A stretch of DNA of 32,000 bases from Cuniculiplasma divulgatum (GTDB lineage Archaea > Thermoplasmatota > Thermoplasmata > Thermoplasmatales > Thermoplasmataceae). Location: NCBI RefSeq assembly GCF_900083515.1, contig NZ_LT671858.1:690001-722000 (forward strand), read 5' to 3'. The notes below the pieces were generated by a model. The model worked only from the letters and a program-made list of their open reading frames with translations. It did no database searches and was not told the origin of the DNA. Below, in pieces: positions 14,541-32,000 of this stretch. The position numbers and the translations under genes are program-made. The stretch's first letter is position 1. Each line of letters opens with the position of its first letter.

Positions 14541-14564
14541 AAAATAATGAGGAGGGATCTTTAG

Positions 14565-15888: not shown

Positions 15889-15990
15889 ATGTATGAGAAA
15901 ACGGTAACACCATTTGGGAATTCAGGTAAGGTTGATGTTGTCAAGAAGTATATTGGAAAGAGAGTCTACTTTATAGTGCTAAAGGAATAA
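15889..15990 (+). CDS. Small AbrB/SpoVT-fold protein resembling DUF2080 (putative transposon-encoded protein)
   Basis: This 33-codon ORF is below the track cut-off: MYEKTVTPFGNSGKVDVVKKYIGKRVYFIVLKE. The pattern eKtV.p.GnSgkv.vpKk.iGkrV..v. is what I recall for DUF2080. Its short length keeps confidence low. Confidence 0.4.
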   Translation: MYEKTVTPFGNSGKVDVVKKYIGKRVYFIVLKE

Positions 15991-16055
15991 GAACTTCTGT
16001 TACAGAGCCATCCTATAGACGGGATATATATTTAAGTTATACATATAACTACAAT

Positions 16056-16208
16056 ATGGAAAAGAAGACAACATTTGGACCCCAGGGACAGGTAATCATT
16101 CCAAAAGATATCAGAGATAAGATCGGCATAAAGGAATATTCTGAAGTTATTGTTGATGTATTGGATGACTCAGTTATAATAAAGAAGATCAAACATGAAT
16201 CAGTATAG
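16056..16208 (+). CDS. vapB: AbrB/SpoVT-type VapB antitoxin, apparently truncated
   Basis: 50 codons: MEKKTTFGPQGQVIIPKDIRDKIGIKEYSEVIVDVLDDSVIIKKIKHESV, a classic swapped-hairpin motif (G.v.IPk.iR..lgik.g..v). It ends in tandem TAG-TAA. The same frame then stays open to 16310 and overlaps the PIN start. Confidence 0.6.
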   Translation: MEKKTTFGPQGQVIIPKDIRDKIGIKEYSEVIVDVLDDSVIIKKIKHESV

Positions 16209-16287
16209 TAAGTTGACTATTATTGTACAACTTATTCAAAAAAGCTCACCAAGAAAATAGATATCAAAAAAATTATAGAGGAACAAT

Positions 16288-16710
16288 ATGAAAGGGACAT
16301 TTTACATTGATTCCAATGTTTTCCTGTACTCTGTTCTCTACAATGATCTCATAGAGTCTGAAAAAGCAAGAGAAATTTTATCACAAATAGAAGGGAAAAA
16401 TATCCAAGCATATACTTCAACCTTAACTTGAGACGAGGTCTCATATGTCGTTGAAAGAACACTAGGAAAAACAGATGCTATTGAGGTGGGCAAGAAGTTT
16501 ATTAATTTCCCATTCTTAAGATTCATACCAGTGGACGAAGAGATAATCCGGAGAAGCCGAGTTATCCGAGAAAAATATAATCTGAAACCACGGGATTCGA
16601 TACACCTGTCTTGTGCAATCGAACGAAATATTTCTGATATTATCTCTGATGACGCAGATTTTGAAGGTATAAAAGAGATCAATAGATTGCCTATCAATGG
16701 ATTGGTTTGA
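16288..16710 (+). pseudogene. vapC: PIN-domain VapC toxin interrupted by an in-frame TGA
   Basis: MKGTFYIDSNVFLY (first acidic PIN residue) ...AYTSTLT-TGA-DEVSYVV... PRDSIHLSCA ... IISDDADF (C-terminal acidic residues). The single in-frame stop is at 16429-16431. The downstream part is track ORF 16486-16710 in the same frame. Confidence 0.7.
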
Positions 16711-16784
16711 CCTTAACACCATAGCACCAAGCTAGTGACAAGACCTTTTAATTATCTTGTATTCTATTTCGAAAGTTTCTTATC

Positions 16785-17138
16785 TTACCTTTCCCTGTAA
16801 AATTTACACTCTATCCCATTCTTGTCCCGATGTAGTTTTTTAATCCAGGTCCTCAAATCTTGTTTAGGGTTATTGTAACTTTTGAATCTTCTGTCTGTAA
16901 ATTCCATGTCCATAGCATTGATCTCTATCTCTGCAATGCTCATCCACCTTGCATTCCTGAATGTATAATGGAATTCAACCCTCGAAAGCAGTGTATCGCT
17001 TTTTTACTTTCCAATTTCTTCTTCAAAAGAGCTCCTGAAATAGGTGTTAAGATTGTCCATTACAATGTGAATCTTCTTTCCATCTTTGTACATATTCAGA
17101 ACGTCCACCAGCTTCCCAAATCTTTTAACCAATCTCAT
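16785..17138 (-). mobile_element. IS630/Tc1-mariner-family DDE transposase, C-terminal remnant
   Basis: The minus-strand frame reads ..KKIHIVMDNLNTYFRSSFEEEIGK-TAA-KSDTLLSRVEFHYTFRNARWMSIAEIEINAMDMEFTDRRF...IECKFYRER. This matches the IS630 C-terminus (i.lvlDNl.tH ... lefhytPkh.SWlNmaEiei..l..qcl.rRi). It has an in-frame stop at 17004-17006 and the N-terminal half is missing. Confidence 0.65.
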
Positions 17139-17274: not shown

Positions 17275-18840
17275 GTGATAAAATCTCAGTCATTTTTTGC
17301 ATATTCAAGATGCGGTTATTTAAATATAAATGGGCAGGAGATAGAATTTCCATTGGTACTGGACAGTGATAGTATACAAATAAAGGAGGATCAAATTTCA
17401 CTCATGGGAGAAAGTGCAACAAAAAGAGACGTAAGTATAGGAAAAAGAACCATAACCATCGCTGAAACAGAGAATTTCATAGTTCCTATAATCAATCCAC
17501 ATTTTCTCAAAAGAAGCAGGCAGACAGTTAATTTCATCATGGATTTAAAGAAAATCATAGGTTATGACAAGCTCCTCTACATTCCAGGGATCTCGGATCC
17601 TTATTTGTTACCACAACTGTTCATGCTTGGAGTTGACATATTTGATGACATTAATGCAGATATGGAAGGCTCCCATGGGACACTATATACTATGATGGGC
17701 AGAATCCATAATGGGGAAGAAAATAGTAGAGAAAACGGAAAATTCCTTCAAGATCTGGTGTCCTTATTAAAAAAAGGTGTCGAATCGATGACTCTGATGG
17801 AAATGGTTGAAAGATGGAATATAAGTTCAAAGGCAAGGGAGATAATCAGGATGCTGATGGATGAAAAATCAGAAGAATTTGAAAAGGTTTATCCACGAAC
17901 CACAGGATCGGTTATAGCTGGTGGCTTAGAATCACTTGAGAGGCCAGATATAGTGAGGTTTAACAGATATGTGCTGGAAGATTATAAAAAACCAAACAAT
18001 CTTGAAACAATTCTTTTCTTGCCTTGCTCTGCGAGAAAGCCCTATTCTACGTCTAAATCACATCGTGAAATATTTGAGGCACTGGGTTCTCTTAGAAGGT
18101 ACATTAACGAAGTGATCGTTACTTCTCCCATAACTCTCGTTCCAAGAGAGCTAGAAGAAACATATCCTGCTGGATTCTATGATATTCCTGTAACTGGTAA
18201 CTGGTTCCTGGAAGAAAAGGAGAATATAATAAGATCAATTAGATCGTTCATATCAAAAAATCAGTATAAGAATACGATTTTCTTCCTTCCGGAAGATATG
18301 TTATTTGTTAAGGAAAGACTGAATCTTGGTGAAGATTTTATTCTATGGAAAAAGGGAACTGATAACCAGTTTGACGAATTAAAGGCGAGAATATCTCAAA
18401 TTAGATCAGAAGAAGATGTAAGGGGGAGAAGAGATTTCATGAAGGAGAAACTTCTTTCCATAGCAAGATATCAGTTCGGCGAATGGATTATACCACACAT
18501 TGAAGGTCTGAGGATAAACCGTATGTTCAATCAGTTCATGCTGGTTGATGGAAATAAGCCATTTTTTGTGTTCAATGAAAGATTGGGTAAGCTCACAATA
18601 CATAAGAATGCAGCAGAGTTATTCGTAAAAACTCGTAAATTCTTAGTTGAAATTGATGACTTCAAGCCAACAGCCAGTATTTATGCAATGGGGGTGAAGG
18701 ACTGCACAGAGGATGTGAGACAGGAGGACGAGGTTGTTATACATCATAGTGGATCAGTGAGAGGAACCGGAATTGCAAAAATGAGCAAGGAGGTCATGAT
18801 GAATACACATAAGGGAGTTGCAGTAAAGGTGAGGAATTAA
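17275..18840 (+). CDS. arcS: Archaeosine synthase ArcS (TgtA2-like, DUF5591 plus C-terminal PUA)
   Basis: The ArcS signature PC-x3-KPY-x2-S-x2-H is present as LPCSARKPYSTSKSH. The C-terminal PUA-like segment is VVIHHSGSVRGTGIAKMS..GVAVKVR. The track start at 17086 overlaps the IS630 remnant. I place the start at in-frame GTG 17275 (VIKSQSFFAYSRCGYLNINGQEIEFP, resembling the TGT-family N-terminus). Confidence 0.8.
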   Translation: MIKSQSFFAYSRCGYLNINGQEIEFPLVLDSDSIQIKEDQISLMGESATKRDVSIGKRTITIAETENFIVPIINPHFLKRSRQTVNFIMDLKKIIGYDKLLYIPGISDPYLLPQLFMLGVDIFDDINADMEGSHGTLYTMMGRIHNGEENSRENGKFLQDLVSLLKKGVESMTLMEMVERWNISSKAREIIRMLMDEKSEEFEKVYPRTTGSVIAGGLESLERPDIVRFNRYVLEDYKKPNNLETILFLPCSARKPYSTSKSHREIFEALGSLRRYINEVIVTSPITLVPRELEETYPAGFYDIPVTGNWFLEEKENIIRSIRSFISKNQYKNTIFFLPEDMLFVKERLNLGEDFILWKKGTDNQFDELKARISQIRSEEDVRGRRDFMKEKLLSIARYQFGEWIIPHIEGLRINRMFNQFMLVDGNKPFFVFNERLGKLTIHKNAAELFVKTRKFLVEIDDFKPTASIYAMGVKDCTEDVRQEDEVVIHHSGSVRGTGIAKMSKEVMMNTHKGVAVKVRN

Positions 18841-19014: not shown

Positions 19015-19818
19015 ATGGCAGTGTGGTCATATCTACCCTCCCCAATTTTTGTATTTTTCAGGGTTATTATTTCAACCGCAGTTCTCTATACAATCTTAAG
19101 AAAGAAACTTAGTTTGAGTTATAGATATTTCTCTAATCCATTTGTTATTATATCAGGACTGCTGCTTGCTGCCAATTGGGTTTTCCTGTTTTATGCTGTG
19201 AGCCTAATTCCAATATCAGAGGCTATAATATTCTACTACTTTGGGCCTGTTATTGCTATTTTACTTTCACCACTGGTAAAGGAAAGAATAAACAGTTTCA
19301 ATCTGATAAATGTGATCCTATCATTCGCAGGAATATTGATAATGTCAGCTGGTACAATTTATTTAAATCCACTGGGTTTAATTTCAGCAATACTTTCAGG
19401 AATAACATATGGGTTGCTGTCAATAACAAGTAAACATTCTTCAAAATATTTAAGCCCCATCAATCTTGTGTTCTTTCAGGTTTTAATTTCATCCATAGTT
19501 CTATTTCCTTTCGTTCTCTTTATAAAATATTCATTTAGCGTTAATGATGTATTTATAGCCATATTTTCATCTGTTGTTCAGACAGTACTTGCCTTATTCC
19601 TTTGGTACGATTCCATGAAAAATCTCAATGTTCAGATAGTATCCATCATAAGCTATCTCGATCCTGTATTTGCAATCATATTTGCTCTGGCATTCCTGAG
19701 GCAAATACCAACAATCTATACTCTTATAGGAGGTACATTGCTTATAGGAAGTGGTCTGCTAACCACTATTATAGCACTGAAGGACAAAGATCGTGAACCA
19801 GATATCAATATAGAATGA
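19015..19818 (+). CDS. EamA/DMT-superfamily transporter
   Basis: 267 aa, with two EamA-like halves and about 9-10 TM helices. The frame is open and transporter-like for 39 codons upstream (..KKEKGLSEIVLSTVIWGSIPV) with no canonical in-frame start, so the 5' end is uncertain (see finding). Confidence 0.75.
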   Translation: MAVWSYLPSPIFVFFRVIISTAVLYTILRKKLSLSYRYFSNPFVIISGLLLAANWVFLFYAVSLIPISEAIIFYYFGPVIAILLSPLVKERINSFNLINVILSFAGILIMSAGTIYLNPLGLISAILSGITYGLLSITSKHSSKYLSPINLVFFQVLISSIVLFPFVLFIKYSFSVNDVFIAIFSSVVQTVLALFLWYDSMKNLNVQIVSIISYLDPVFAIIFALAFLRQIPTIYTLIGGTLLIGSGLLTTIIALKDKDREPDINIE

Positions 19819-20105
19819 ATTAACTGAAAAATGCTGTATAGACATTCCAAGTTCAATTGAAGTCGTAGTGAACAATTTGTTAGATTTCTATCAGATATTA
19901 CAAGTCAAACCAGAGAATAAAATTTTGGAGTATTATCTTGCAGAACTTAATGCCTAGACGACAATGCAAAGCTAAACAAAACAATAAAAACTAAGTCATT
20001 AGATAATGGAAGAAAGTTGAAATTAAAGGCTCAGATTTTTATTTAAAAATAAGTGTCTTTCCTTGTTCCAAAAACTTAATTAAGATAGGGACTTTATGCA
20101 TATTA

Positions 20106-23100
20106 ATGCCTGAAATAAACGCCAAATTCATCGCTGTTATAATAGTGGCAGCTATAATACTTGGTACAGGCCTTTCCCTATTCCACGAAACATATAACGC
20201 AAAGCCCTACGAAAAGATCAAGATTCCTCAGATATTTGAGAACGAGCAAAAGATGCTGGCCTTTAGCACAAAAGGTTCGAGCATGAGCCCTGTACAAAAC
20301 GGGACAATACAACTGCATGGGTATATAAAAAACAAATCTGGAAACCCGGTTACAGGAAGAATATCAATTTATGATTTTCCATGGGTAGTTTACACGGATC
20401 TTAATAGTCAGGGATATTACAATGTAACATTGCTACAGTATGGTTCATTTACCATAGGCTACAAGGTAAGCGGATATAATACTGGCTTTAGTAAATTTAC
20501 CATACTCTCAGGTAATTCAAAATGGGAAAATTTAACATTGCAAAAGGCGACCTTTTATAATGTATCAGGAAAAACATTTAACCTTACGGGAGCAAATGTT
20601 CCAAATGTAAATCTTTCATTTATTTCATTTTTTGGTTTTTATAACAGTAGCTCCAATTCAAACGCTGTTTACCATACTGTTCTACAGAACGGTACTTACG
20701 CAGCCCTAACAATTAAAAGGAATTACAATGAAACTCCAAAACCTCTTTTCTTCAACGTCACCGGAAAAGAAATAACAAATCTGAATTTTAAAATGAGGAA
20801 TTTGAAAAACGAAACCTATCTAATTTCAGGTTATGTACGGAATAAATTAAACCTGCCGGTTCCCCTGATTAAAGTTAGCTCAGTATCACTAAGTCGTAAT
20901 TCAACAGTGCGAAGCCTCAGTACTCCATCATTTTTTGCAAGTACACTCACAAATAAATCAGGGTACTATCAGGTGAGTGCACCCGTGGGTATAGACTATA
21001 TTTATGTGAGTGCAAATTATGAATATCTTCATAACTTTTCTTCCCTATTCTTCGTAAATAGAAGTGTAAGTCATATAAATATTTCAGTCGAGGCCAGGGA
21101 CCCGTTTGTATCTCCCACGGTAGTAAATAAAATTAATTCCTCGGGAATAAAACCTATCCCGTCTTTCATGGAGTCAAATGTTTCTAGTTACCTTAAAAGC
21201 AAACTCTCCGATGTATCATACAATCTTGCATTTTCAGATTTCAACAAGGGCTTTATCAAAAATAGGAATATTACTATTCAGCTAAATAACATATTCTACC
21301 CGAACTCGCCACAAAACAGAACGCTCCTCCATTCGCTGAATGTTTTGATAATGGGTAACTTTGAAGGGACCATATACTATACACAGACTAATATAAGCAC
21401 AAGTGGCGTTGCAACTTTTCCAGCATACTATTTTGGATCATACAGTCTTGTAGTTTATGCACCCGGCTTCCTTTACTCCACAGTCTCCATATCCATAAAA
21501 AACCAAAGTGGTCAAACTGTTGTTCCATATATCTCGCTGAAACCACTCCCAGGACAATTTTTTGAGGTAAGTGGATTTACCTTCAACCTTATAAATCAAC
21601 AAAGATTACTGTTTCCAGATATTACTTTGAATGAAAATGGTCTTCTGGTAAATAGCAGTATAGAGCAATCTTCAGGAGGTTCCTTTAAATTTTATTATTT
21701 CATAGATACTCACCAAAATTATGAAATAAATCTAACAATAAATGTGTTCCAGGCCGGATTCTATAATAGCAGCAAGTCTTTCGTAATTAAGTCTATATCC
21801 GGCCAGAAAAATTTTACATCTATTCAGATAGGTTCAAGACCACTCAACTCCATTGGAAGTGGTTTCACTCAGTCATTACTGAGAGTTCCTGGCTATAACA
21901 AGACCCACCTGGAGAATATATTAAAAGGGTCTGTTTCCTCTAACATTTATAACAAGGGTCCCCAAAAGATCAGTGTAAGAGTGAGCAATTTTTCCAAAAA
22001 CAAGGGGAATGAATTCGTTGTCTATTCTAATATAAACGGACTAATATATTCGAAGAAAGTGTTTATAAACAGTACAGTAAATCCAACATTCAACATAAGC
22101 ACCACATTTTCACTATTTATGAATATTTCATTATTTGGTCAGTATTATAAAACTATAAATAATCCAGTCTCAGATGGAATTAGCCAAACTGTAAGCACAC
22201 ACTTTGCTGGCAGGCAAACCAGTGTTGTGAATATAAGTCTGGTCAACATGTTAAATTTCACAGTCAATAAGGACTTTGGACTGGAATATGGGAGAGAATT
22301 CAATGAACAGCTACCTGTTTCGGATCTTTCCTTAAATATTTCTTCCTCATCCATACCAATCATTACAAATAGTGTAAATGAAAAATTCAATGGAACGTTC
22401 ATAACATACAAGCTTCCACAGGGTTCATATAATTTCACCTACAGAGGGCAGGATTACGTGTCTGCTAATCTCAAATTTAATCATAATAACAAAACGGGAC
22501 AGTTTAAAAAACTTAATGTTTCTTCCTACGGACTGGTTATACCAATTGAAAGTAAGGTTAAGGTCTCATTCTTTCTTACAGAAATAACATTTCAAAATAA
22601 TTCATTGCTTCAATATACCGTACCTCCTGGGAACAACGGTAAAATGTTAATTCTCAATCAAATAAACAACCTGACTGGAGTTAAAATGGATTACCACATC
22701 AATGTGGAGGGAAGCAACTTCACGAGTAAAAGTTTCTCCCTTAATTTCAAGACACCATACAATGTGCAGTATATAAACGTAACAAATACAAGAGAAAGGG
22801 CAATATTCAACGAAACTGGTAGCAGGTTTGCAAACAAAACCTATCTATGGAATAATTCAGTAAACCTTGGAAGCATATCGGGAATTATAAAGAATGTAAC
22901 TGTTGAGTTAAATAATCAGGAAGCCTATTACATGCAGAAGTATTCTAGACTGGAAATAGATGGAAAAAATATAAGCATTCTATCTATTGGAGGCTCTGAG
23001 TTCAATAATCTTAGTTATTCTTACATTGGAGGTCAAAAACTTGGAATTGATATTTACCTCGGAGGTTCAATATACTCTATATATGCATATTTCTATGTAT

Positions 23101-23150
23101 ACTTTGGAATATTGAATGTTAATTATGCGAACATGAATGGAGTGGAGTAA
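20106..23150 (+). CDS. Large membrane-anchored surface glycoprotein candidate with carboxypeptidase-regulatory-like beta-sandwich repeats
   Basis: 1014 aa. N-terminal TM is FIAVIIVAAIILGTGLSLF. I count about 49 N-x-S/T sequons by eye. Recurring modules include HGYIKNKSGNPVTGRISIYD, ISGYVRNKLNLPVPLIKV...TNKSGYYQV, VSGKTFNLTGANVPNV and VSGFTFNLINQQ. The C-terminal tail is aromatic and hydrophobic (IYSIYAYFYVYFGIL). Confidence 0.7.
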   Translation: MPEINAKFIAVIIVAAIILGTGLSLFHETYNAKPYEKIKIPQIFENEQKMLAFSTKGSSMSPVQNGTIQLHGYIKNKSGNPVTGRISIYDFPWVVYTDLNSQGYYNVTLLQYGSFTIGYKVSGYNTGFSKFTILSGNSKWENLTLQKATFYNVSGKTFNLTGANVPNVNLSFISFFGFYNSSSNSNAVYHTVLQNGTYAALTIKRNYNETPKPLFFNVTGKEITNLNFKMRNLKNETYLISGYVRNKLNLPVPLIKVSSVSLSRNSTVRSLSTPSFFASTLTNKSGYYQVSAPVGIDYIYVSANYEYLHNFSSLFFVNRSVSHINISVEARDPFVSPTVVNKINSSGIKPIPSFMESNVSSYLKSKLSDVSYNLAFSDFNKGFIKNRNITIQLNNIFYPNSPQNRTLLHSLNVLIMGNFEGTIYYTQTNISTSGVATFPAYYFGSYSLVVYAPGFLYSTVSISIKNQSGQTVVPYISLKPLPGQFFEVSGFTFNLINQQRLLFPDITLNENGLLVNSSIEQSSGGSFKFYYFIDTHQNYEINLTINVFQAGFYNSSKSFVIKSISGQKNFTSIQIGSRPLNSIGSGFTQSLLRVPGYNKTHLENILKGSVSSNIYNKGPQKISVRVSNFSKNKGNEFVVYSNINGLIYSKKVFINSTVNPTFNISTTFSLFMNISLFGQYYKTINNPVSDGISQTVSTHFAGRQTSVVNISLVNMLNFTVNKDFGLEYGREFNEQLPVSDLSLNISSSSIPIITNSVNEKFNGTFITYKLPQGSYNFTYRGQDYVSANLKFNHNNKTGQFKKLNVSSYGLVIPIESKVKVSFFLTEITFQNNSLLQYTVPPGNNGKMLILNQINNLTGVKMDYHINVEGSNFTSKSFSLNFKTPYNVQYINVTNTRERAIFNETGSRFANKTYLWNNSVNLGSISGIIKNVTVELNNQEAYYMQKYSRLEIDGKNISILSIGGSEFNNLSYSYIGGQKLGIDIYLGGSIYSIYAYFYVYFGILNVNYANMNGVE

Positions 23151-23153
23151 TTT

Positions 23154-23732
23154 ATGGAAAAAGAAAGTAGTGATCAGGAAGCAATAAAGCAAATACAGAA
23201 TATACTGAACGGTGAAAAAGGAGAGGGAAAGAAACGGGGATTCTTTAACAGGAAAAAGAAAGTTGTTAGAGAAGAAACACAGATCAGGGTAAAAACCATA
23301 CTTGATATTCCACCACTTGTCAATGCAAGAAGAAATGTTGGAAATAAAGAAATCCTAAAGGCAGCCATGGAGGGAAAGAGAGACGTACAGAAGGATATTG
23401 AAAGGTACTTTAATATAAACTTAGGAGGCAATCTTCCAAACATGGAGAGGATTTATAAGATTCTAAAAGAGTCTAACAAGGATCTTTCTGAAGAAATAAC
23501 AGTAGATCCTGTATCACTTGCTCTGGGTACATCATTGATAGGAACAAAGACCACTGGAGATACTCAGATGAAGGAAATGGCATTAAAGAAATACGCCTCG
23601 TTCCTGATGGAAATATATTTTCCAGCTGTCTATTCACAGGATAATGAAATAGACGGTGAAAGAATCGTATCACAGTTAACAGACATTTACAACTACATGG
23701 ATATAAAAAGACTCTATTTTGTGGATGAGTAA
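23154..23732 (+). CDS. Hypothetical soluble, charged protein (operon member)
   Basis: 192 aa. It starts 3 nt after the preceding stop and has a basic N-terminal patch (KKRGFFNRKKK). I recognise no motif. Coding is inferred from tight operon packing and ORF length. Confidence 0.6.
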   Translation: MEKESSDQEAIKQIQNILNGEKGEGKKRGFFNRKKKVVREETQIRVKTILDIPPLVNARRNVGNKEILKAAMEGKRDVQKDIERYFNINLGGNLPNMERIYKILKESNKDLSEEITVDPVSLALGTSLIGTKTTGDTQMKEMALKKYASFLMEIYFPAVYSQDNEIDGERIVSQLTDIYNYMDIKRLYFVDE

Positions 23733-23736
23733 GTAA

Positions 23737-24255
23737 ATGTCAGTAAGTGCTTTACCTTTTTCCTCATTATCTATTTCGGTCCCACCTTTTTCATTCACAG
23801 AAGTTCTTTACGAGCTGAGTACAGATCCGCTATTATTTCTCGTGTTTCTTATACCGGTCCTGATGGTTGTTATCTATTTCATCATTCTAAAGATAAATGC
23901 GCTGAGAAGGAAGGTAGATTCAGAACCGACCCTAATTCAGGAAAAGGAAACTTTTAAATTACCGGAAGATTACATAAATGAGGAGATGTTGTACGTGCAG
24001 AACAGGGATTATGATCATTTTGAGTTGAATCTTGAAGAAAGTTCCAGAAAGATCAAGGCATTATCGAAATATCTTACTAGGAAGGCCAGAAAATACAGGA
24101 GAATGAAATACCGCATAACATACACTGCAAGCGAGAGAATGAAGAAAAAACTTGCGGAAAAAATGCAGAAGGAATTCAAGGAGATTATGAGTGTGTATGC
24201 TACTATCCAGAAGGTAACCATAGATCTGGATCTTAGCAGAATAAAGGAGGAATAA
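23737..24255 (+). CDS. Hypothetical single-pass membrane protein with a basic coiled-coil-like tail (operon member)
   Basis: 172 aa. It starts 4 nt after the previous stop. The TM is LLFLVFLIPVLMVVIYFIIL, followed by a Lys/Arg/Glu-rich helical region (KYLTRKARKYRRMKYR..KKKLAEKMQKEFKE). Confidence 0.6.
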   Translation: MSVSALPFSSLSISVPPFSFTEVLYELSTDPLLFLVFLIPVLMVVIYFIILKINALRRKVDSEPTLIQEKETFKLPEDYINEEMLYVQNRDYDHFELNLEESSRKIKALSKYLTRKARKYRRMKYRITYTASERMKKKLAEKMQKEFKEIMSVYATIQKVTIDLDLSRIKEE

Positions 24256-24259
24256 ATAT

Positions 24260-25222
24260 ATGGCTGAATTAACACAAACAGACCTTAACAAGGTCAGGAA
24301 CTCAATAGAATTGATAGGTAATGAGATAGACTCCAGGGTGGTAGGTTCTAAGGAAATAGTGAAATTCATGTTTATTTCACTGATAAGTAACAATCATATA
24401 CTGATGGAGGGTGTACCCGGTCTTGCAAAGACAATGCTGGCAAGTGAATTCTCATCTCACCTTAAGGCACAGTTTAAGAGGATACAATTCACTCCAGATA
24501 TGCTACCCTCAGACATTACCGGAAATATAATATTCAATCTTGAATCGAGAAAACTAGAATTCAGGGAAGGGCCAGCTTTCACCAACGTATTACTTGCGGA
24601 TGAGATAAACAGGACCCCTGCAAAGGTACAATCTGCACTTCTTGAAGCAATGGAAGAAAAACAGGTGTCTGTGGGTGGAGTCACTCACAAACTACCAGTT
24701 CCCTTCATTGTCATTGCGACACAGAACCCCATTGAACAAGAAGGAACATTTCCAATAGCAGAAGCGCTAATGGACAGATTCCTTTTCAGATTAATTCTTA
24801 CCTATCCATCAAGGGAGGCAGAAGTGCAGATACTTAACAGATCATTGAGAGGTGCCAGCACTCAAACATATATGGACGTTGATACTATTTTGAAGCTGAG
24901 AGATGAAGTTTATGATGTATTTGTTTCCCAGAGTATTAAGGAATACATGGTAGACATCATGAGGAAGACAAGAGAAAGCAAGAAGGTTTATGTGGGTGCA
25001 AGTCCACGTACCACCGCTAAACTTCTAATGGCCTCAAAAGCATGCGCACTGGTTCATGGTAGGAACTACGTGGTTCCAGAGGATGTGTATTACATAAGTA
25101 AGTATCTGTTGAACCATAGGTTGATACTGAGACCAGAAGCCATGCTGGATGAATCTGATGTAGGGACTGAAGTTGCTTTTAGAGTCATAGAAGAAATACT
25201 TTCTGAGGTGCCTTCTCCTTAA
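24260..25222 (+). CDS. MoxR-family AAA+ ATPase (AAA_3)
   Basis: 320 aa. Walker A is GVPGLAKT (24410-24433) and Walker B is LLADEINR (24590-24613). Also present: ALLEAMEE.QVS, VIATQNPIEQEGTFPI.EALMDRF and GASPR. AAGGAGG lies 10 nt upstream of the ATG. Confidence 0.9.
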   Translation: MAELTQTDLNKVRNSIELIGNEIDSRVVGSKEIVKFMFISLISNNHILMEGVPGLAKTMLASEFSSHLKAQFKRIQFTPDMLPSDITGNIIFNLESRKLEFREGPAFTNVLLADEINRTPAKVQSALLEAMEEKQVSVGGVTHKLPVPFIVIATQNPIEQEGTFPIAEALMDRFLFRLILTYPSREAEVQILNRSLRGASTQTYMDVDTILKLRDEVYDVFVSQSIKEYMVDIMRKTRESKKVYVGASPRTTAKLLMASKACALVHGRNYVVPEDVYYISKYLLNHRLILRPEAMLDESDVGTEVAFRVIEEILSEVPSP

Positions 25223-26544
25223 TGATAAAGAAAAGGGCTTACAGCATCCTGGCCATACTTACAATAGGTCTTCTAGAATCATACATCTATAATTTATATG
25301 GTTACCAGATGCTAACCTTTTTTTTCCTAAGTGGGATTTTCATTGTAAGTGCTGATCTGTGGGCACTAAACCATGGAACTTTTAAGGCGATGAACCAGCT
25401 AGAGGTAAGGAGGATACTGGAAAGAGAAGAAATGAAGAAGGGGGACATGGTAAGGGCAGAACTTACCATAAGAAATCCTTCAAAACGCAATCTACATTTC
25501 CAATATTTTGACACACTGGCTGATGTATTTGACCTGAAGGGCGATTACACAGACAGCGTATATCTTAAGAAGGGAGAAACGGTGAAAAAAACCTATTATC
25601 TGAGCCCTGAAGCAATAGGTAAATATTCCATTGGTCCTTTGAAAGTTATATGTTCTGATGCTCTCGGATTGGGTTTTATAGAGTATGTAGCAGATCTGAT
25701 CAGTACTGCAAGGATAGGGCCATCATCCAAAGATACCTTTATGCAAAGAAGCGAGAGATTGAGCAATGTAATATTCACCAATGGACTGCATATTTCAAGA
25801 AAAGCTGGTCAGGGCTATAACTTCTTTGGCATCAGGTCATATAATGATTCAGACGATATGAGGCACGTTGCATGGAACAGATATAATCTTACAGGAAATG
25901 ATGAACTGTTTGTAAAGGAGTGGGAGGAAGAAAGGCAGATAGATGCCATTATACTAATTGATTACAGCATTGGGTCAAATCTGGGGTATGGAAAGCTAAG
26001 AATGTTTGATTTTATGGTTACAAGCGCAATAAATGCCTCATATACGATGCTGAAGAATCAGGACAGGGTTGGCTATATAATATTCTCATCTGACCATCAA
26101 ATATACATAAAACCATCTTCCAGGAGCGAATCAATTGAAAATCTCCAGAAGAAGGTTGCTGAGATCAGACCTTCAGGTACCTTCAATATAGGTGCTGCTA
26201 ACAGGTATATTAGAAAAACGGTAAAGAAAAACGCAATGATCTTTATGATTATTTCACCCTACTCCGGTAAAAATACAGAAGAAGTTCTACCTCAGGACCT
26301 CAGGATGGAAAAGCAAGAATATATGTACATAATCAACCCAAGAGGCTTTTATGAAACACATGATACAGAAATTATAGGTGTTTTTGGAAACGCTCTCATA
26401 ATTAATGAAAATAAGATCCTTGATACCAATGTTAAATTTTATAGAAAATTTGGCATTGTTGCAAGAAATGTAATAAAGGAGAGAATACTGGTATCACTCA
26501 TTTCGGATTATATTAACGGAAGGGAGAGTAACAGAGGTGCGTGA
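25222..26544 (+). CDS. DUF58 (vWA-like) protein with an N-terminal membrane anchor
   Basis: 440 aa. It overlaps the MoxR stop by 1 nt (TAATG). It has two N-terminal TMs and a beta-sandwich-like region (GDMVRAELTIRNPSKRNLHF). The DUF58 core is GQGYNFFGIRSYNDSDDMRHVAWNRYNLTGNDELFVKEWEEERQIDAIILIDYS. Confidence 0.85.
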   Translation: MIKKRAYSILAILTIGLLESYIYNLYGYQMLTFFFLSGIFIVSADLWALNHGTFKAMNQLEVRRILEREEMKKGDMVRAELTIRNPSKRNLHFQYFDTLADVFDLKGDYTDSVYLKKGETVKKTYYLSPEAIGKYSIGPLKVICSDALGLGFIEYVADLISTARIGPSSKDTFMQRSERLSNVIFTNGLHISRKAGQGYNFFGIRSYNDSDDMRHVAWNRYNLTGNDELFVKEWEEERQIDAIILIDYSIGSNLGYGKLRMFDFMVTSAINASYTMLKNQDRVGYIIFSSDHQIYIKPSSRSESIENLQKKVAEIRPSGTFNIGAANRYIRKTVKKNAMIFMIISPYSGKNTEEVLPQDLRMEKQEYMYIINPRGFYETHDTEIIGVFGNALIINENKILDTNVKFYRKFGIVARNVIKERILVSLISDYINGRESNRGA

Positions 26545-27422
26545 TGAGGAAAAATGATATATCTATATACATATCTAACGTGCTTATACTTACACCAGCC
26601 ATAGCATCTTTCATCTACATATTCCCGGTTGAGAGAATTTACTGGGAAGCGTGGGTCATCCTGCTTTTTGTAATACCATTTGTGAAGTATTTCTCACCCA
26701 AGGATTACAGATCAAAGGTATATCCACTTACCATGATTGTTATACTTGTATACATCCTCGTATCTGATCTCGTTTTACTAACACATGATTCATTTATTGG
26801 TTCAGGTCTTTTCAAATATCCAATTACTAGGGGAAACTTTACACCCTTTATGTTCACCCTTTCCACTGGTATAGTGTTTCCATTACTTTTTGAAGGGGTA
26901 TTATCCAAAAAAACCTCAAAAACAGTTTCATACATGGTCGTTTCCACAACTTCCACCATATATATGCTCGCAACACTCACATTTGCATTGAATGTTTTCA
27001 AAGGATACAATTTTTATGACGTATATGAACTAACAGGAATTCTAATTTATCTAAATGTGTACCTGCTTATATATAAGGGATATGAATTCATAACCCTTCT
27101 ATTACAGCCAAATCCATTTGTAATTGATCTATTAACAACAACCTTTATTGTTTCCATAGTGGGTTTCATCTTGAACCTTTATTTTTCCGAGGAAAACAGG
27201 GTAAAAAAATCACTTGAATATCTTGGTTACCCAATATTAACGGGGTCAATAGCCTCATTTATTCTGACATTTCTACTAATTTATTTGCCATATAGTATTT
27301 ATTCTATATTTGTTACAACTTTAATTGCCATAATGGTTATGTTTTCCGTAAAACACTCTGATAGAAAAGGAAATTACCATCTAAAGATTATGGAAGATGA
27401 TGGAAACAAGCAAAACAATTGA
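26541..27422 (+). CDS. Polytopic (about 8 TM) membrane protein, unknown family (operon member)
   Basis: 293 aa. The GTG start overlaps the DUF58 stop (GTGA), with an alternative ATG at 26544. The protein is strongly hydrophobic throughout and I see no catalytic motif. Confidence 0.6.
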   Translation: MMRKNDISIYISNVLILTPAIASFIYIFPVERIYWEAWVILLFVIPFVKYFSPKDYRSKVYPLTMIVILVYILVSDLVLLTHDSFIGSGLFKYPITRGNFTPFMFTLSTGIVFPLLFEGVLSKKTSKTVSYMVVSTTSTIYMLATLTFALNVFKGYNFYDVYELTGILIYLNVYLLIYKGYEFITLLLQPNPFVIDLLTTTFIVSIVGFILNLYFSEENRVKKSLEYLGYPILTGSIASFILTFLLIYLPYSIYSIFVTTLIAIMVMFSVKHSDRKGNYHLKIMEDDGNKQNN

Positions 27423-28671
27423 AGACGTTTATTATTACGACACTTCCCTGAACAGATTCATCCATGGATCGGTAAAAATTCAAAATGGAATAATTGCAGG
27501 AGTTGAAGAAACTCAAAATTCGGGTGATTGTAGCAGGTTCCTGATACCGGGCTTTATAAATACTCATTCTCATATTGCAATGAGCAGATTCAGGGGAAGA
27601 TTGGATGATGTAAATCTTGAAAAGTTTCTGGAAAAGACGTTCAAGCTTGACAGTGAAAGAACTAAAGATGATATATTCCATTCCACTATTTGTGGAATTT
27701 ATGAGTTACTTTCTAATGGTATAACTTCTTTCTTTGATCTTTACTACGATGAGGATATTATATGGGACGCATGCAACAAGATGGATATAAGATCTTTTTT
27801 ATCATGGAATACGCTGGACAGAGAAATAACAACACAAAAGGGAGACCCTGTTGATAATGCAGAGAGCTTCATTAGGGAATATAATGGGAAAAGCAGTATT
27901 ATATACCCTTCCATCGGAATTCAGGGAGTATACGTTGCATCTCTCGATACAATGAGGGCTGCAAACAATGTTTCTAAGAAATTTGATACAGTTCTTCACA
28001 TGCATTTATCAGAAACAAGGAAGGAGGTTTATGAATTCTTGGACAAAACAGGGAAGCGTCCTGTGGAATTTCTTTCGGATAACGATCTTTTAAGTAAAAG
28101 ACTTAATGCTGCCCACTGCGTATGGCTGAACGACCACGAGATCAAGGCACTGGGAAAGAACGAAGTCAATGTTTCATGGAATTCCGAAAGCAATCTTAAA
28201 CTTGGCACTGGAGGATTTCCACCAGTACCAGAATTAATGAATAATGGGGTTAATATTACCATAGGAACAGACAGCAATGGTAGTAACAATTCCCTGAATA
28301 TTCTTGAAACTGCAAAAACGGGAACTATTTCAATAAAGAATGGCAGATGGGATGCCGGAATACTAAACGCAACGGATGTTTTCAGGATGCTTACAGTCAA
28401 TGGAGGGAGGGCATCTCACATCCCATATCTGGGCGAAATTAAGATTGGAGCTCCTGCCGATTTTAACATAATTGATGGCAACCACTTTTCATTGCAGTCA
28501 TCTGATCCAGATGTCATGATTAACCAGATAGTTTACAGCATGAATCCTGCTGCAATAACAGATACTGTGATCAATGGAAAATATATAAAGAAAGATGGAA
28601 AAATGAATCTAGATATTGAGAATAATTACAGGGAATCTTTAAGATTCCTGAAAGCAGCATTCAAAGTTTGA
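27397..28671 (+). CDS. Amidohydrolase of the MtaD/DadD (methylthioadenosine/SAH or 5'-deoxyadenosine deaminase, ATZ/TRZ) type
   Basis: 424 aa. Metal-binding motifs in the canonical order: PGFINTHSHIAMS, HMHLSETRKEV, AHCVWL and GTDSNGSNNSLNILE. It overlaps the upstream membrane-protein gene by 26 nt. Confidence 0.8.
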   Translation: MMETSKTIEDVYYYDTSLNRFIHGSVKIQNGIIAGVEETQNSGDCSRFLIPGFINTHSHIAMSRFRGRLDDVNLEKFLEKTFKLDSERTKDDIFHSTICGIYELLSNGITSFFDLYYDEDIIWDACNKMDIRSFLSWNTLDREITTQKGDPVDNAESFIREYNGKSSIIYPSIGIQGVYVASLDTMRAANNVSKKFDTVLHMHLSETRKEVYEFLDKTGKRPVEFLSDNDLLSKRLNAAHCVWLNDHEIKALGKNEVNVSWNSESNLKLGTGGFPPVPELMNNGVNITIGTDSNGSNNSLNILETAKTGTISIKNGRWDAGILNATDVFRMLTVNGGRASHIPYLGEIKIGAPADFNIIDGNHFSLQSSDPDVMINQIVYSMNPAAITDTVINGKYIKKDGKMNLDIENNYRESLRFLKAAFKV

Positions 28672-30249: not shown

Positions 30250-30996
30250 TTGAAAGACCTGGAAATAAGGGAGAATGTTTATATCTCAGACCTTTTCTGC
30301 ATTTATTTATCTGATATATCCGCCGCAGTTATATCGGATCTTCATCTCGGGTTTGAAGAAGAAATGAATCTCAATGGCCTGTTCCTCCCAAAATTACAGA
30401 GAAATCATGTTGAGGACAAAGTCTCTCAGATAATTGAAAGATATAACCCTGAAAAGTTGATAATCAATGGGGATTTCAAACAGGAATTCAGGAGGAATCT
30501 GCCACAGGAATGGGATGATGTCATTCACTTCATAGATCGTTTTACTGCAAAGACAGAGCTTATATTTGTCAGGGGAAATCATGATAACTATCTTCAATCT
30601 ATTCTGAGTAAGAGGGGTATTCTGGAAGTAGATACATACGAGACGGAAAATTACTACATCTATCATGGTGATAAGGATCTATCCTATAGAAAATTCACCA
30701 TACTGGGGCACGAACACCCATCAATAGTTTTAAGAGACAAAATAGGAGGTGTATATAAGATACCTGCCTTTGTGTACGATGATAAAAATCAGATAGCAAT
30801 CACGCCAGCAATGAGTTTCTTTTCATCAGGAACTGATGTCACTCAATCACTCTTGAGTGACGAGCATTTCACTCCTGTTCTAAAGAATATAAAAGATAAA
30901 AACTTCAGGGTTTTTGGTATAACTGATGATTTTGGACTTGTTGACTTTGGTTTTCTTTATGATCTTCAGACGAAGAATAGAGTTCCCTATCGGTAA
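30250..30996 (+). CDS. Calcineurin-like metallophosphoesterase (MJ0037/TIGR00024-like)
   Basis: Motifs VISDLHLG, NGDFKQEF, VRGNHDNY and GHEHP appear in the canonical order. TTG 30250 is the only possible start upstream of the first motif, because an in-frame stop lies at 30241. Confidence 0.75.
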   Translation: MKDLEIRENVYISDLFCIYLSDISAAVISDLHLGFEEEMNLNGLFLPKLQRNHVEDKVSQIIERYNPEKLIINGDFKQEFRRNLPQEWDDVIHFIDRFTAKTELIFVRGNHDNYLQSILSKRGILEVDTYETENYYIYHGDKDLSYRKFTILGHEHPSIVLRDKIGGVYKIPAFVYDDKNQIAITPAMSFFSSGTDVTQSLLSDEHFTPVLKNIKDKNFRVFGITDDFGLVDFGFLYDLQTKNRVPYR

Positions 30997-32000
30997 ACTT
31001 CATGGCCGAATCCAGAAACTCCCTTACGCTTTCAGTTTTTCCTTCTCTAACCATCTTTTTGAGGGTGAGTGTTTCAGGAGCAAGAACCTTATTCACTATG
31101 GAATTTCCCAGTAGTTCAAGTGCCTCTCTTTCTTCTGTGCCGTTTTCGATAGCCCTGCTGAATTTTTCAATTTCATCACTCAGTATATCCTTCGATCTAC
31201 TGTAAATGCTGGCAATATAGCCTTCAATTTCACCTTCTGCAAGCTTAGAGTAGATCTTTCTCAGTTCCCTATCAATAATGGTCTCGGCAACCTCTATATC
31301 CTTTTCTTTTCTTTTTCTGTTCTCCTGAAGAATCTGATTTGCCATCTCTAAATTGATCAGTTCAACATTTGGATTACTGTAACTTTCCTCAATATTTTTT
31401 GGGTTTGAAATATCTATAAACAGTAATTTTCTTGGAATTTTTTCAATGAGTTCCCTCGTGATCAATGGGGTCTTGGAGCTTGTGGCTGTCACAATTACGT
31501 GACACTCTTCAACTATATTTCCTATATCCAGAGTTTTCTTGAAATTTACCTTGAAAAGATGTGATAGCTCCGAACCTGCTTCCTCATTCCTTCCATATAT
31601 TGTGATCTTGACTGAAGGTTTCTTCTTTAAATATTTTACAACTGTGGCAGCCATTTTTCCAGTCCCAATTACACCGATAGTGCTACTATTCAGAAGACCT
31701 TTCTTTTCGATTTGCTCTATCATGATCGAAGGAATCGATACTTTTCCATGTGATATTTCTGTAGTCTCCCTTACTTCCTTACCTACCTTCAACGCTTTTT
31801 GAAAAATCATGGAAAGGAATTTATCGGTTCTACCCTGTTTGTGGGCCAGGTCAAATGCCTCCTTTATTTGTCTTAATATTTCCTGCTCTCCTATGGACAT
31901 GGACTCCAGTCCAGAAGAAACCCGCAGAAGATGTCTTATTGCATGTTCATCTTTCAATAATTCTGCATTTTCCAATTCATTCTCTGAAAATTTTGCATCA
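30905..32000 (-). CDS. hemA: Glutamyl-tRNA reductase, 5' end outside the window
   Basis: HLLRVSSGLESMSIGEQEILRQIKEA is the catalytic-domain signature and VIGTGKMAATVVKYL is the NADPH-binding motif. The frame stays open from the track start (31975) to the window edge, and about 60-90 N-terminal residues of a typical HemA are missing. Confidence 0.85.
   Translation of the reverse strand, partial: DAKFSENELENAELLKDEHAIRHLLRVSSGLESMSIGEQEILRQIKEAFDLAHKQGRTDKFLSMIFQKALKVGKEVRETTEISHGKVSIPSIMIEQIEKKGLLNSSTIGVIGTGKMAATVVKYLKKKPSVKITIYGRNEEAGSELSHLFKVNFKKTLDIGNIVEECHVIVTATSSKTPLITRELIEKIPRKLLFIDISNPKNIEESYSNPNVELINLEMANQILQENRKRKEKDIEVAETIIDRELRKIYSKLAEGEIEGYIASIYSRSKDILSDEIEKFSRAIENGTEEREALELLGNSIVNKVLAPETLTLKKMVREGKTESVREFLDSAMKFTDRELYSSSEDHKENQSQQVQNHQLYQKP

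Follow-up and report, generated by a model that had tools for sequence, protein, structure and literature searches.

Cuniculiplasma divulgatum carries a six-gene cluster that is specific to, near-universal in and single-copy in the order Thermoplasmatales. At its core stands a widespread pair, an MRP-type MoxR AAA+ ATPase and its DUF58 partner (β-sandwich plus vWA-like domain). Upstream of this pair lies the gene for a large predicted surface glycoprotein, O1, and the remaining genes encode three proteins, O2, O3 and O6, whose families are restricted to Thermoplasmatales. We tentatively favor the reading that the cluster specifies a lineage-specific, membrane-tethered variant of the MoxR–DUF58 system that would act in the biogenesis or maintenance of O1, a function that we infer from the evidence below. 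Wall-less, acid-loving archaea join a known MoxR–DUF58 pair to three proteins confined to Thermoplasmatales, and the operon supplies a concrete candidate client, O1, for this poorly understood chaperone family.

Locus organization and gene calls

The window (the whole 32,000-nucleotide stretch of DNA analyzed) contains six + strand genes between positions 20106 and 27422: O1 (CSP5_0748/CPM_0744; 20106..23150, 1014 aa), O2 (CSP5_0749; 23154..23732, 192 aa), O3 (CSP5_0750; 23737..24255, 172 aa), the gene for the MoxR-family AAA+ ATPase (CSP5_0751; 24260..25222, 320 aa), the DUF58 gene (CSP5_0752; 25222..26544, 440 aa) and O6 (CSP5_0753; 26544..27422). An earlier note, made from the sequence alone, had described six same-strand open reading frames, and its coordinates and strand held up, as did its spacers of 3, 4 and 4 nt, the TAATG at 25220-25224 and the GTGA at 26541-26544. 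It had read the GTGA as a 4-nt overlap between DUF58 and O6; the motif is present, but a 1-nt overlap (TGATG) is likelier. The O6 start codon is more likely ATG 26544, giving 292 aa, than GTG 26541, giving 293 aa; public gene calls also list 292 aa, and a GAGGTG lies 7-12 nt 5' of this ATG. The 287-nt gap upstream of O1 (19819-20105) is AT-rich, as had been noted, at 28% GC versus about 36% for the window.

Conservation of gene order and operon signals

We surveyed the locus in 80 species-level Thermoplasmatales genomes, among which 62 loci were complete. All 62 complete loci (62/80 overall) had O1-O2-O3-MoxR-DUF58-O6 on one strand; of the 18 remaining loci, 16 ran off the end of a contig, and two (L033 and L043) came from genomes in which O2 is missing. 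Median distances at the junctions from O1 to O6 were +3.5, −1, −4, −4 and −1 nt, respectively, with the MoxR→DUF58 junction at exactly −4 nt in 69 out of 79 loci and the O1→O2 gap at 20 nt or less in 97% of loci. The order and tight spacing of the window thus recur across relatives, and the arrangement is far beyond chance. DUF58 was only 31-40% identical between genera that retain the six-gene linkage. The flanking genes, ArcS and the amidohydrolase, likewise kept their positions in the majority of loci (50 and 60, respectively), so part of the six-gene synteny may reflect regional inertia; the clades of Thermoplasma, Ferroplasma and Acidiplasma retain the six genes together though both flanking genes differ there.

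A candidate archaeal promoter lies at 20070..20083 (+), where a purine-rich BRE-like AAAAAC precedes a TATA-like TTAATTAA spanning positions −30 to −23 relative to the O1 start codon, a spacing that implies a leaderless mRNA. Among the complete loci, an A/T-only 8-mer occurred at −40 to −17 before O1 in 48 out of 62 (77%; mode −30), and 12-20% of loci had one before O2-O6. Shine-Dalgarno-like motifs preceded O2-O6 in 59-79% of cases, versus 6% for O1 and 13% for the downstream amidohydrolase gene. Taking the TATA-like box before O1 together with the Shine-Dalgarno-like motifs before O2-O6 and the conserved order, strand and spacing, these signals indicate that O1 to O6 form a single leaderless operon, as the earlier note had suggested.

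O1 is a predicted glycosylated surface rod

The earlier note had counted O1 among four of six products lacking a placeable motif. O1 matched the CarboxypepD_reg family (PF13620; E 1.8e-10), so three products rather than four are unplaceable; all 18 aligned O1 orthologues matched the same family (best E 3.7e-32). The predicted architecture is an N-terminal signal-anchor followed by a large ectodomain in which CarboxypepD_reg-like β-sandwiches are arranged in tandem. The sole hydrophobic segment spans residues 8-26 (20127..20183, +; hydropathy 2.68) and is directly preceded by K7, which is invariant in the orthologue alignment. A jackhmmer self-repeat search found four CarboxypepD_reg-like (PF13620) repeats over residues 67-481 (20304..21548, +), bounded at 67-150, 151-233, 237-332 and 390-481, and a fifth, weaker repeat at residues 730-808 (22293..22529, +; i-E 0.0019). 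O1 has no Cys and few charged residues. It contains 49 NxS/T sequons, compared with 21.7±3.9 in shuffled sequences, and the observed/expected ratio was 2.53 over 67 O1 orthologues and 0.71-0.99 for the other five products. O1 is probably N-glycosylated, and the earlier description of a membrane-anchored ectoprotein can be sharpened to a predicted N-terminally anchored extracellular rod of at least five CarboxypepD_reg β-sandwich domains.

C. divulgatum and O. meridianum have an exterior protein layer about 20 nm thick and lack S-layer genes (PMC12448462). The six-gene operon is also present in O. meridianum (L071), and O1 is a candidate constituent of this unordered layer, which replaces an S-layer. 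Proteome data for C. divulgatum (PMC7285479 supplement) include peptides of both O1 and MoxR, the latter at a moderate level; O1 gave only 7 peptides in the one proteome examined, so its role as a major coat protein stays at the level of a candidate. Separately, glycosylation and the low K/R content of O1 would also lower peptide detection.

The MoxR–DUF58 core

The earlier assignments of MoxR and DUF58 were borne out by Pfam matches above thresholds. MoxR matched AAA_3 (E 5.9e-61) and AAA_lid_2, with Walker A (GVPGLAKT, 24410-24433) and Walker B (LLADEINR, 24590-24613) where they had been placed; its closest solved structure was 2r44 (E 4.9e-74), and RavA matched at E 8.8e-8. CSP5_0752 matched DUF58 (PF01882) at E 1.2e-16 (61 bits versus a cut-off of 23.4), with the core at residues 204-343 (25831..26250, +). 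This protein is laid out as an N-terminal hydrophobic hairpin, a β-sandwich with a weak BatD/DUF11-like match (BatD-like, E 0.006) and the vWA-like DUF58 core. The core carries a MIDAS-like motif, D247-Y-S249-x-G-x-N253-x-G255, of the form D-x-S-x-G, in which the second Ser is not conserved. Two adjacent hydrophobic segments with K/R on both flanks form a putative transmembrane hairpin at residues 7-49 (25240..25368, +), in which E19-S20 is nearly invariant. Judged by the positive-inside rule, and with sequons not enriched, the globular domains are probably cytoplasmic.

O2, O3 and O6

O2 is a predicted soluble protein whose N-terminus is basic and disordered and whose residues ~50-190 form an all-α domain. 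Its AF2 model had a pLDDT of 80 (above 90 over residues 50-190) and no fold match in PDB or BFVD; an exhaustive HMMER scan of 1.84e9 proteins returned only 28 O2 representatives, from a narrow clade. O3 is a predicted single-pass membrane protein whose transmembrane helix (residues 32-54; 23830..23898, +; hydropathy 3.22) contains conserved F37 and P40 and precedes a helical C-terminal tail that is highly charged and rich in K/R. O6 is polytopic, with about 7-9 predicted helices and conserved P18, E117-G118 and G234; its AF2 model was unusable (pLDDT 43). The topologies proposed earlier for O3, DUF58 and O6 (single-pass, membrane-anchored and polytopic) were all supported.

The earlier note had also proposed an equivalence between the unplaced products and DUF4350, DUF4129 and DUF3488/transglutaminase partners. 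At E<=1-10, members and consensuses of O2, O3 and O6 matched none of these models and neither DUF7269 nor DUF7519 from haloarchaea, and profile–profile comparison gave probabilities below 1%. This equivalence is accordingly not supported at the sequence and profile level, and what survives of the proposed resemblance to known MoxR–DUF58 neighborhoods is a parallel in architecture rather than homology of the unplaced products.

Comparison with known MoxR systems

In the RavA–ViaA, CbbQ–CbbO and NorQ–NorD systems, an AAA+ hexamer works with a vWA adaptor that delivers it to a target complex, resulting in target remodeling or cofactor insertion. The window likewise pairs a MoxR-family ATPase with a vWA-type partner. 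The ViaA, CbbO and NorD adaptors have a canonical MIDAS and serve soluble or respiratory enzymes, whereas DUF58 of the window has the D-x-S-x-G variant and a surface glycoprotein as its candidate target.

Haloarchaeal, mycobacterial and Listeria MoxR–DUF58 clusters are headed by a membrane protein or ectoprotein and closed by a polytopic one, with a small transmembrane protein and DUF58 in between. In Listeria monocytogenes (MoxR–DUF58–TgpA, L095), an MRP-type MoxR (~43% identical to that of the window) has DUF58 directly behind it and a polytopic membrane protein next, tightly spaced and co-directional as in the window; unlike such operons, the window has three extra genes (O1-O3) before MoxR, and its O6 matches none of TgpA_N, Transglut_core and DUF4129. 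Haloarchaeal clusters (L087-L093) consist of a DUF4129 membrane protein or a 908-aa protein (TgpA_N, Transglut_core, β-sandwich and DUF4129), then DUF7269, DUF58 and DUF7519, with MoxR (42-44% identical to that of the window) adjacent. They resemble the window in having a head membrane protein that may bear a large β-sandwich ectodomain, a small membrane-anchored protein with a soluble tail, DUF58 and a tail protein of 4-13 transmembrane segments. However, O2, O3 and O6 share no sequence or profile similarity with DUF4129, DUF7269 or DUF7519, O1 lacks the transglutaminase core and C-terminal transmembrane segments, and MoxR lies inside the operon in the window but is often convergent in haloarchaea.

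In the Bifidobacterium PFNA cluster (pkb2-fn3-aaa-atp-duf58-tgm), the gene for an FN3 surface glycoprotein precedes MoxR–DUF58–TGase, and its authors proposed that MoxR may fold FN3 (PMC8430577). The shared feature is a large secreted or surface β-sandwich glycoprotein gene directly upstream of MoxR–DUF58; the PFNA cluster differs in being bacterial, in encoding a Ser/Thr kinase and a transglutaminase, and in lacking O2-, O3- and O6-like genes. The Bacteroides aerotolerance (Bat) operon and its counterparts in Borrelia, Leptospira and Riemerella are membrane-associated operons built around an MRP-type MoxR and DUF58 (PMC11834572, PMC5700661) but also carry BatA/B vWA membrane, TPR and BatD proteins, which the window lacks save for the weak BatD-like match in DUF58. 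Makarova, Galperin and Koonin (2015) described the archaeal arCOG01314 (DUF4350) neighborhood as a 'putative novel secretion system' and predicted that its MoxR, Ig-vWA, Ig-like surface and small transmembrane proteins form one membrane complex (PMC5898192). That predicted operon parallels the window in its MoxR, Ig-like plus vWA (DUF58-type), Ig-like surface and small multi-transmembrane proteins; it differs in that the window has no DUF4350/GldG-like protein, a surface protein of the CarboxypepD_reg type and three small or membrane proteins from different, Thermoplasmatales-specific families. The arCOG label of CSP5_0751 carries the annotation of this neighborhood.

A tentative model and its alternatives

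In the model that we tentatively favor, the DUF58 hairpin, O3 and O6 would form a membrane platform to which a cytoplasmic MoxR hexamer, O2 and the adaptor domains of DUF58 are tethered, with the charged helical tail of O3 also in the cytoplasm. As in other MoxR/vWA pairs, the vWA-like DUF58 would target ATP-driven remodeling by MoxR, which may aid O1 export, membrane anchoring, assembly or turnover. The data are compatible with the hypothesis of the earlier note that such an ATP-driven machine would serve the glycoprotein coat. The physical complex, the choice of O1 as client and the direction of action are all conjectural. MoxR, O2 and probably the globular DUF58 domains lie in the cytoplasm, whereas only about seven residues of O1 do, so any action on mature O1 would have to be indirect or precede translocation. 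Also weighing against the model, O2 is missing from two genomes (L033 and L043), bacterial MoxR/Bat mutants show pleiotropic stress phenotypes, with cytoplasmic partners reported (PMC11834572), and a published arCOG label puts the vWA domain extracellular, which, if right, would break the proposed MoxR–DUF58 contact.

It is possible, though we consider it unlikely, that the six proteins are a trans-membrane secretion or surface-assembly apparatus of the kind proposed by Makarova and colleagues in 2015, with O1 as a structural extracellular subunit instead of the client and with other surface or secreted proteins, encoded elsewhere, as substrates. Such an apparatus fits the published prediction of MoxR, Ig-vWA, Ig-like surface and 2-5-TM proteins (PMC5898192), and O1, unlike fast-changing cargo, is conserved and colinear across Thermoplasmatales. 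However, the defining component, arCOG01314/DUF4350, is absent from all six products, and comparison with Pfam, NCBIfam and PADLOC matched none of them to known families of pores, channels or translocases.

We give similarly low odds to a general role of MoxR–DUF58 in envelope or stress tolerance, Bat-like or RL3499-type, with clients outside the operon, for instance membrane or metabolic enzymes, and O1-O3 and O6 as accessory or regulatory passengers. Four lineage-specific genes that stay joined to MoxR–DUF58 by translational-coupling-type junctions are hard to explain as passengers, and the operon lacks BatA/B-type vWA and TPR proteins. This role would nevertheless accord with the oxidative, heat and envelope phenotypes of Bat/MoxR mutants and the reported dehydrogenase interactions (PMC11834572, PMC5700661), with the moderate detection of MoxR, which has no obvious tie to O1 abundance, and with a second pair in C. 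divulgatum (CSP5_1283/1282), which shows that MoxR–DUF58 pairs of this organism are not tied to O1.

Historical synteny devoid of common function, with O1 an ordinary surface protein that lies upstream of MoxR–DUF58 by accident, appears improbable: the conserved positions of the housekeeping flanks speak for it, but the O1→O2 gap leaves no promoter space, TATA-like and Shine-Dalgarno-like signals are divided between O1 and O2-O6, and the six genes stay together in clades that have lost the flanks. An anti-phage defense or mobile-element module around the AAA+ ATPase, suggested by weak PADLOC matches of MoxR to IetA and DolB (E 3.5e-4 to 1e-3) but by no match of the other five proteins, is effectively refuted by the distribution of the cluster, which is near-universal, single-copy and fixed in its chromosomal place between housekeeping genes rather than in a variable island.

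Layout of the six-gene locus

Six forward-strand open reading frames occupy window positions 20106-27422, exactly where the earlier note had placed them: O1 (a 1014-aa surface protein), O2 (192 aa), O3 (172 aa, single-pass), MoxR (ORF4), DUF58 (ORF5) and O6 (a 292-aa polytopic protein). The junctions that it described were confirmed as well, with spacers of 3, 4 and 4 nt followed by a TAATG overlap and then a GTGA overlap; starting O6 at the ATG at 26544 instead produces a TGATG overlap at the DUF58/O6 junction. The AT-rich gap reported 5' of O1 is 287 nt long, with 28% GC. The window sequence matched strain PM4 (LT719092.1) and several C. divulgatum MAGs exactly, and the proteome paper lists the six genes as CSP5_0748-0753 in strain S5 and CPM_0744-0749 in PM4.

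Conservation across Thermoplasmatales

A search for DUF58 homologues gave an alignment (A1), from which we collected 80 loci on one-genome-per-species GTDB contigs. Going by record title, all of them belonged to Thermoplasmatales or Thermoplasmata, bar one labelled 'bacterium', and their genera included Cuniculiplasma, E-plasma, Oxyplasma, Thermoplasma, Acidiplasma and Ferroplasma. Iterative HMMER searches with the six window proteins detected O1 in 66 of the 80 loci, O2 in 67, O3 in 74, MoxR in 79, DUF58 in 80 and O6 in 78. The synteny that the earlier note had read from a single genome was kept: the order was always O1-O2-O3-MoxR-DUF58-O6 on a single strand, and the complete set was present in 62 loci, with contig ends cutting 16 of the remaining 18. 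O2 was absent from two Thermoplasmata MAGs, L033 (4923-8423) and L043 (4944-8480), with no match in any forward frame; O1 is ~170 aa longer in both and ends 52-109 nt before O3.

Median junctions along the operon were +3.5, -1, -4, -4 and -1 nt, although some larger negative values are over-estimates because gene starts in the loci were set by the longest-ORF rule. The MoxR→DUF58 junction was -4 nt in 69 of 79 loci and is a 1-nt overlap in the window. ArcS-alpha was a neighbour in 50 of the 80 loci, and a TRZ/ATZ-type hydrolase gene lay downstream in 60; the Thermoplasma, Ferroplasma and Acidiplasma clades have neither, yet the six genes remain together there. These results establish the MoxR-DUF58-centred cluster, a probable operon, as real, order-wide and order-specific.

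Operon signals

A purine-rich stretch in the window is followed by TTAATTAA, at positions -30 to -23 relative to the O1 ATG. We scanned the loci for an A/T-only octamer at -40 to -17 and for a Shine-Dalgarno (SD)-like tetramer (GGAG, GAGG, AGGT or GGTG) at -18 to -3. The octamer preceded O1 in 77% of cases (mode -30) and the tetramer in 6%; the corresponding values were 12-20% and 59-79% for O2-O6, and 44% (mode -28) and 13% for the downstream hydrolase. A leaderless first gene with SD-led internal genes is the signature of archaeal operons, and the pattern seen here is the one expected of such an operon bounded by O1 and O6. The single operon suggested in the earlier note is consistent with four features, namely co-directional genes, junctions too short for promoters, one predicted upstream promoter and putative internal ribosome-binding sites. 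Because the SD-like motif is rare ahead of the hydrolase gene and a TATA-like box of its own is often present at about -28, the hydrolase is probably a separate leaderless transcript with its own promoter, despite a 26-nt overlap in the window genome. Scans for bacterial σ70 promoters and terminators, uninformative for an archaeon, returned 47 promoter-like sites where 38.8±5.8 would be expected.

MoxR and DUF58

Both family assignments made from the bare sequence held. The MoxR protein matched AAA_3 over its full length (profile positions 1-131 of 131; E 5.9e-61; 204.6 bits against a cut-off of 27) and AAA_lid_2 (55.4 bits), with Walker A GVPGLAKT at 24410-24433 and Walker B LLADEINR at 24590-24613. 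Its nearest solved structure was PDB 2r44 (E 4.9e-74), with RavA well behind (8.8e-8). The DUF58 gene adjoins the MoxR gene and is co-directional with it; its product scored 61.1 bits against PF01882 (gathering score 23.4), a domain present in 65 of 65 homologues.

N-terminal to its vWA-like core, DUF58 showed a weak match to a BatD/DUF11-like β-sandwich. D247 and S249 of its MIDAS-like motif are invariant, and the third position is Gly (DYSxGxN), compared with the canonical DxSxS...T...D; the adhesion-site motif was likewise non-canonical in the haloarchaeal DUF58s compared. No solved relative emerged when the DUF58 profile was searched against PDB sequences. In its lack of sequon enrichment the globular part of DUF58 resembles the cytoplasmic proteins, which fits an inferred N-terminal hairpin of two helices with K/R on both flanks; the probable cytoplasmic placement is at odds with the arCOG entry, where the vWA is described as extracellular. 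Near-invariant acidic residues occur in or at the edge of hydrophobic segments at E19-S20 of DUF58 (25276-25281) and E117-G118 of O6 (26892-26897). A second MoxR-DUF58 pair (CSP5_1282/CSP5_1283) is encoded elsewhere in the C. divulgatum genome, outside the window.

The O1 surface protein

O1 had been listed as carrying no placeable motif, which proved incorrect: O1 and all 18 aligned orthologues matched CarboxypepD_reg (best E 3.7e-32), and a self-seeded jackhmmer search showed that the window protein contains at least five copies of the module. In the PDB, the O1 family profile matched the SusC N-terminal domain, NOMO2 and carboxypeptidase D regulatory domains. The protein has a single hydrophobic segment (residues 8-26) just after an invariant Lys (K7), no Cys and few charged residues. 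It contains 49 NxS/T sequons, compared with 21.7±3.9 in shuffles, and the observed/expected sequon ratio was 2.53 for O1 (67 orthologues) and 0.71-0.99 for O2-O6. Because it combines one N-terminal hydrophobic segment with a sequon excess absent from O2-O6, O1 alone of the six products looks extracellular and N-glycosylated, in keeping with the membrane-anchored ectoprotein predicted earlier. We rejected a C-terminal membrane anchor, as the candidate aromatic stretch falls below TM hydropathy and is not conserved. Peptides from O1 and MoxR appear in the C. divulgatum proteome supplement (PMC7285479); O2, O3, DUF58 and O6 were not found in the portion of the supplement that was covered.

The O2, O3 and O6 families

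O3 spans the membrane once and has a helical tail that is strongly charged, and O6 has about 7-9 helices. None of O2, O3 and O6 had a credible match in Pfam, NCBIfam or PADLOC. A word-indexed search recovered 29 relatives of O2 and 16 of O6, none with a Pfam domain; those with a named source were all of Thermoplasmatales type. When the O2 profile was run exhaustively in HMMER against 1.84 billion representatives, 28 proteins reached E<=1e-3, the weakest of which were spurious, such as a Big_9/cadherin giant. The AlphaFold model of O2 is all-α, with a pLDDT of 80 that rises above 90 at residues 50-190, and Foldseek found no match for it in either the PDB or BFVD, where the best E values were 1.6 and 0.9, respectively. 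The predicted O6 model (pLDDT 43) was unusable. The IMG/JGI name of O3 (23737-24255), '5-bromo-4-chloroindolyl phosphate hydrolysis protein' (XpaC-like), was discarded, with no Pfam or NCBIfam match at E<=1. The analysis therefore defines three order-restricted protein families, one of which, O2, has a confident all-α model without a solved-structure match.

Comparison with known MoxR-DUF58 neighbourhoods

We used the window MoxR to reach annotated MoxR loci on plasmid records, whose contents we verified by Pfam. Haloarchaeal loci encode a DUF4129 membrane protein (or a 908-aa head protein composed of TgpA_N, Transglut_core, CarbopepD_reg/Fn3_arc and DUF4129), DUF7269, DUF58 and DUF7519, with MoxR adjacent. 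A Mycobacterium marinum plasmid locus reads DUF4129 - hypothetical - MoxR - DUF58 - hypothetical, and a Listeria locus MoxR - DUF58 - TgpA. These clusters closely parallel O1-O6 in having a head membrane protein or ectoprotein, a small TM-anchored protein, DUF58 and a polytopic tail protein. The Bat (Bacteroides aerotolerance) operon differs: beside MoxR and DUF58 it has the vWA membrane proteins BatA/BatB and a TPR protein (BatC), none of which is among the six products, and outside DUF58 the six products contain neither VWA (above threshold) nor TPR domains.

The earlier note had also suggested that the unplaced ORFs might be kin to DUF4129, DUF4350 and DUF3488/transglutaminase families. For O2, O3 and O6, we scanned every member of the 21-sequence alignments plus the consensus against Pfam. 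Neither the O2 consensus nor any of its 21 members matched DUF4129 (PF13559) at E<=1-10, and hhalign gave O2 a probability of 0.1-0.2% against seven verified DUF4129 domains; a YExARF-like motif spotted by eye in O2 aligned with DUF4129, but not significantly. DUF4350/arCOG01314 (PF14258) had no match in O1-O6 or in 18-21 orthologues per unknown family. Neither O6 nor O1 matched TgpA_N/DUF3488 or Transglut_core in Pfam, hhalign against Listeria TgpA stayed below 1%, and both proteins have zero Cys, versus the Cys-His-Asp core of transglutaminases. DUF7269 (PF23933) for O3 and O2 and DUF7519 (PF24363) for O6 likewise gave no match (hhalign <1%). When the O2, O3 and O6 family HMMs were run on the comparison loci with hmmsearch, nothing was hit; only MoxR and DUF58 were recognised there. 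The hhalign templates were shallow alignments (4-7 sequences) of the partners verified in haloarchaea, mycobacteria and Listeria, with a halophile composition. The proposed memberships fail because Pfam, hhalign, hmmsearch and, for O2, structure searches were all negative, so that the likeness to known MoxR-DUF58 neighbourhoods is one of architecture. The MoxR-DUF58 core is already known; the partners (O1-O3 and O6) are lineage-specific. A defence-system reading was also dropped, since PADLOC gave weak AAA matches only.

Proposed function and alternatives

The most economical reading is a membrane-tethered MoxR/vWA-like remodelling module acting on O1. Its membrane platform would consist of O3, O6 and the hairpin of DUF58, with MoxR, the DUF58 globular domains and O2 on the cytoplasmic face, and the module would serve the biogenesis, anchoring or turnover of O1. 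DUF58 E19-S20, O6 E117-G118 and O1 K7 could be intramembrane contact points. The main difficulty is that O1 would lie almost wholly outside the cell, so the module would have to act before or during translocation, or through TM helices. To our knowledge, few prokaryotic AAA+ systems that lack a known client or mechanism are as widespread as MRP-type MoxR ATPases with DUF58 partners. The operon puts O1 forward as a specific client for such a pair, one that can be tested; the module is fixed and single-copy across the whole order, and a putative promoter ahead of one conserved candidate client makes it an unusually clean case. In the Bifidobacterium PFNA cluster, too, the MoxR-DUF58-transglutaminase genes are preceded by one for an FN3 surface glycoprotein (PMC8430577).

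Two alternatives deserve weight. Archaeal MoxR together with Ig-vWA, DUF4350, Ig-like surface proteins and small TM proteins was predicted to form a novel secretion or membrane-remodelling complex (Makarova, Galperin, Koonin; PMC5898192), a prediction that the arCOG label of CSP5_0751 (MoxR) repeats; a secretion apparatus in which O1 serves as a structural subunit is unlikely in our estimate. Bat-type operons have yielded stress and envelope phenotypes (PMC11834572, PMC5700661), and we regard as equally doubtful a general stress or envelope module whose clients are external to the operon. Mere synteny without shared function is highly improbable and disfavoured, given the promoter/SD pattern and the persistence of the six genes where their flanks change.

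The remodelling module acting on O1 also admits a bolder form. C. divulgatum and O. meridianum have neither an S-layer nor S-layer genes, and both bear a dense, unordered exterior protein layer of ~20 nm whose composition is not known (Gaines et al. 2025; PMC12448462). Both layer-bearing species have the six-gene operon (the window and L071, the O. meridianum locus), whose genes are candidates for making up and building the Thermoplasmatales exterior layer seen by cryo-ET. That O1 is a principal building block of this layer, in place of an S-layer in wall-less Thermoplasmatales, and that O2-O3-MoxR-DUF58-O6 is its dedicated ATP-powered export and assembly machine, is a long shot; if true, archaea would have a type of surface-biogenesis system that has so far gone unrecognised, and an MRP-type MoxR/DUF58 pair would for the first time have an identified client. 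Three operon-bearing organisms, C. divulgatum, O. meridianum and T. acidophilum, are culturable.

Flanking genes

The upstream flanking gene encodes ArcS-alpha (17275-18840; NF053620, 761 bits). Between it and O1 lies an EamA-family transporter gene (19015-19818, +), which is a C. divulgatum-lineage insertion because it was found in only 1 of the 80 loci; in other loci, 40-120 nt separate ArcS from O1. The downstream TRZ/ATZ-type metal-dependent hydrolase gene (27397-28671, +), whose first 26 nt lie within the end of O6, encodes a protein of the PRK06380 subfamily scoring 490 bits, under its 567-bit cut-off. Seven loci had neither usual flank (L069, L072, L078-L080, L082 and L083, the last from Ferroplasma sp.). 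O1 is just 520-555 aa in five of them (L078-L080, L082 and L083), and all seven have an AAA-type protein of ~655 aa with a weak MoxR-profile match ~1.4 kb upstream.

A strain-variable island covers approximately 11530-17080 and includes two ORFs without any Pfam match, at 12873-14540 (555 aa) and 14565-15554 (329 aa); MazE/PIN toxin-antitoxin genes are also found in the island of related strains. In other Cuniculiplasma genomes (L001, L004 and L005), an M24 peptidase gene directly adjoins ArcS in place of the island. Further downstream, a metallophosphoesterase gene (30250-30996, +) and a glutamyl-tRNA reductase gene (30905-31975, −) are convergent, their 3' ends overlapping by 92 nt (30905-30996), and public gene calls extend the reductase upstream to about 423 aa.
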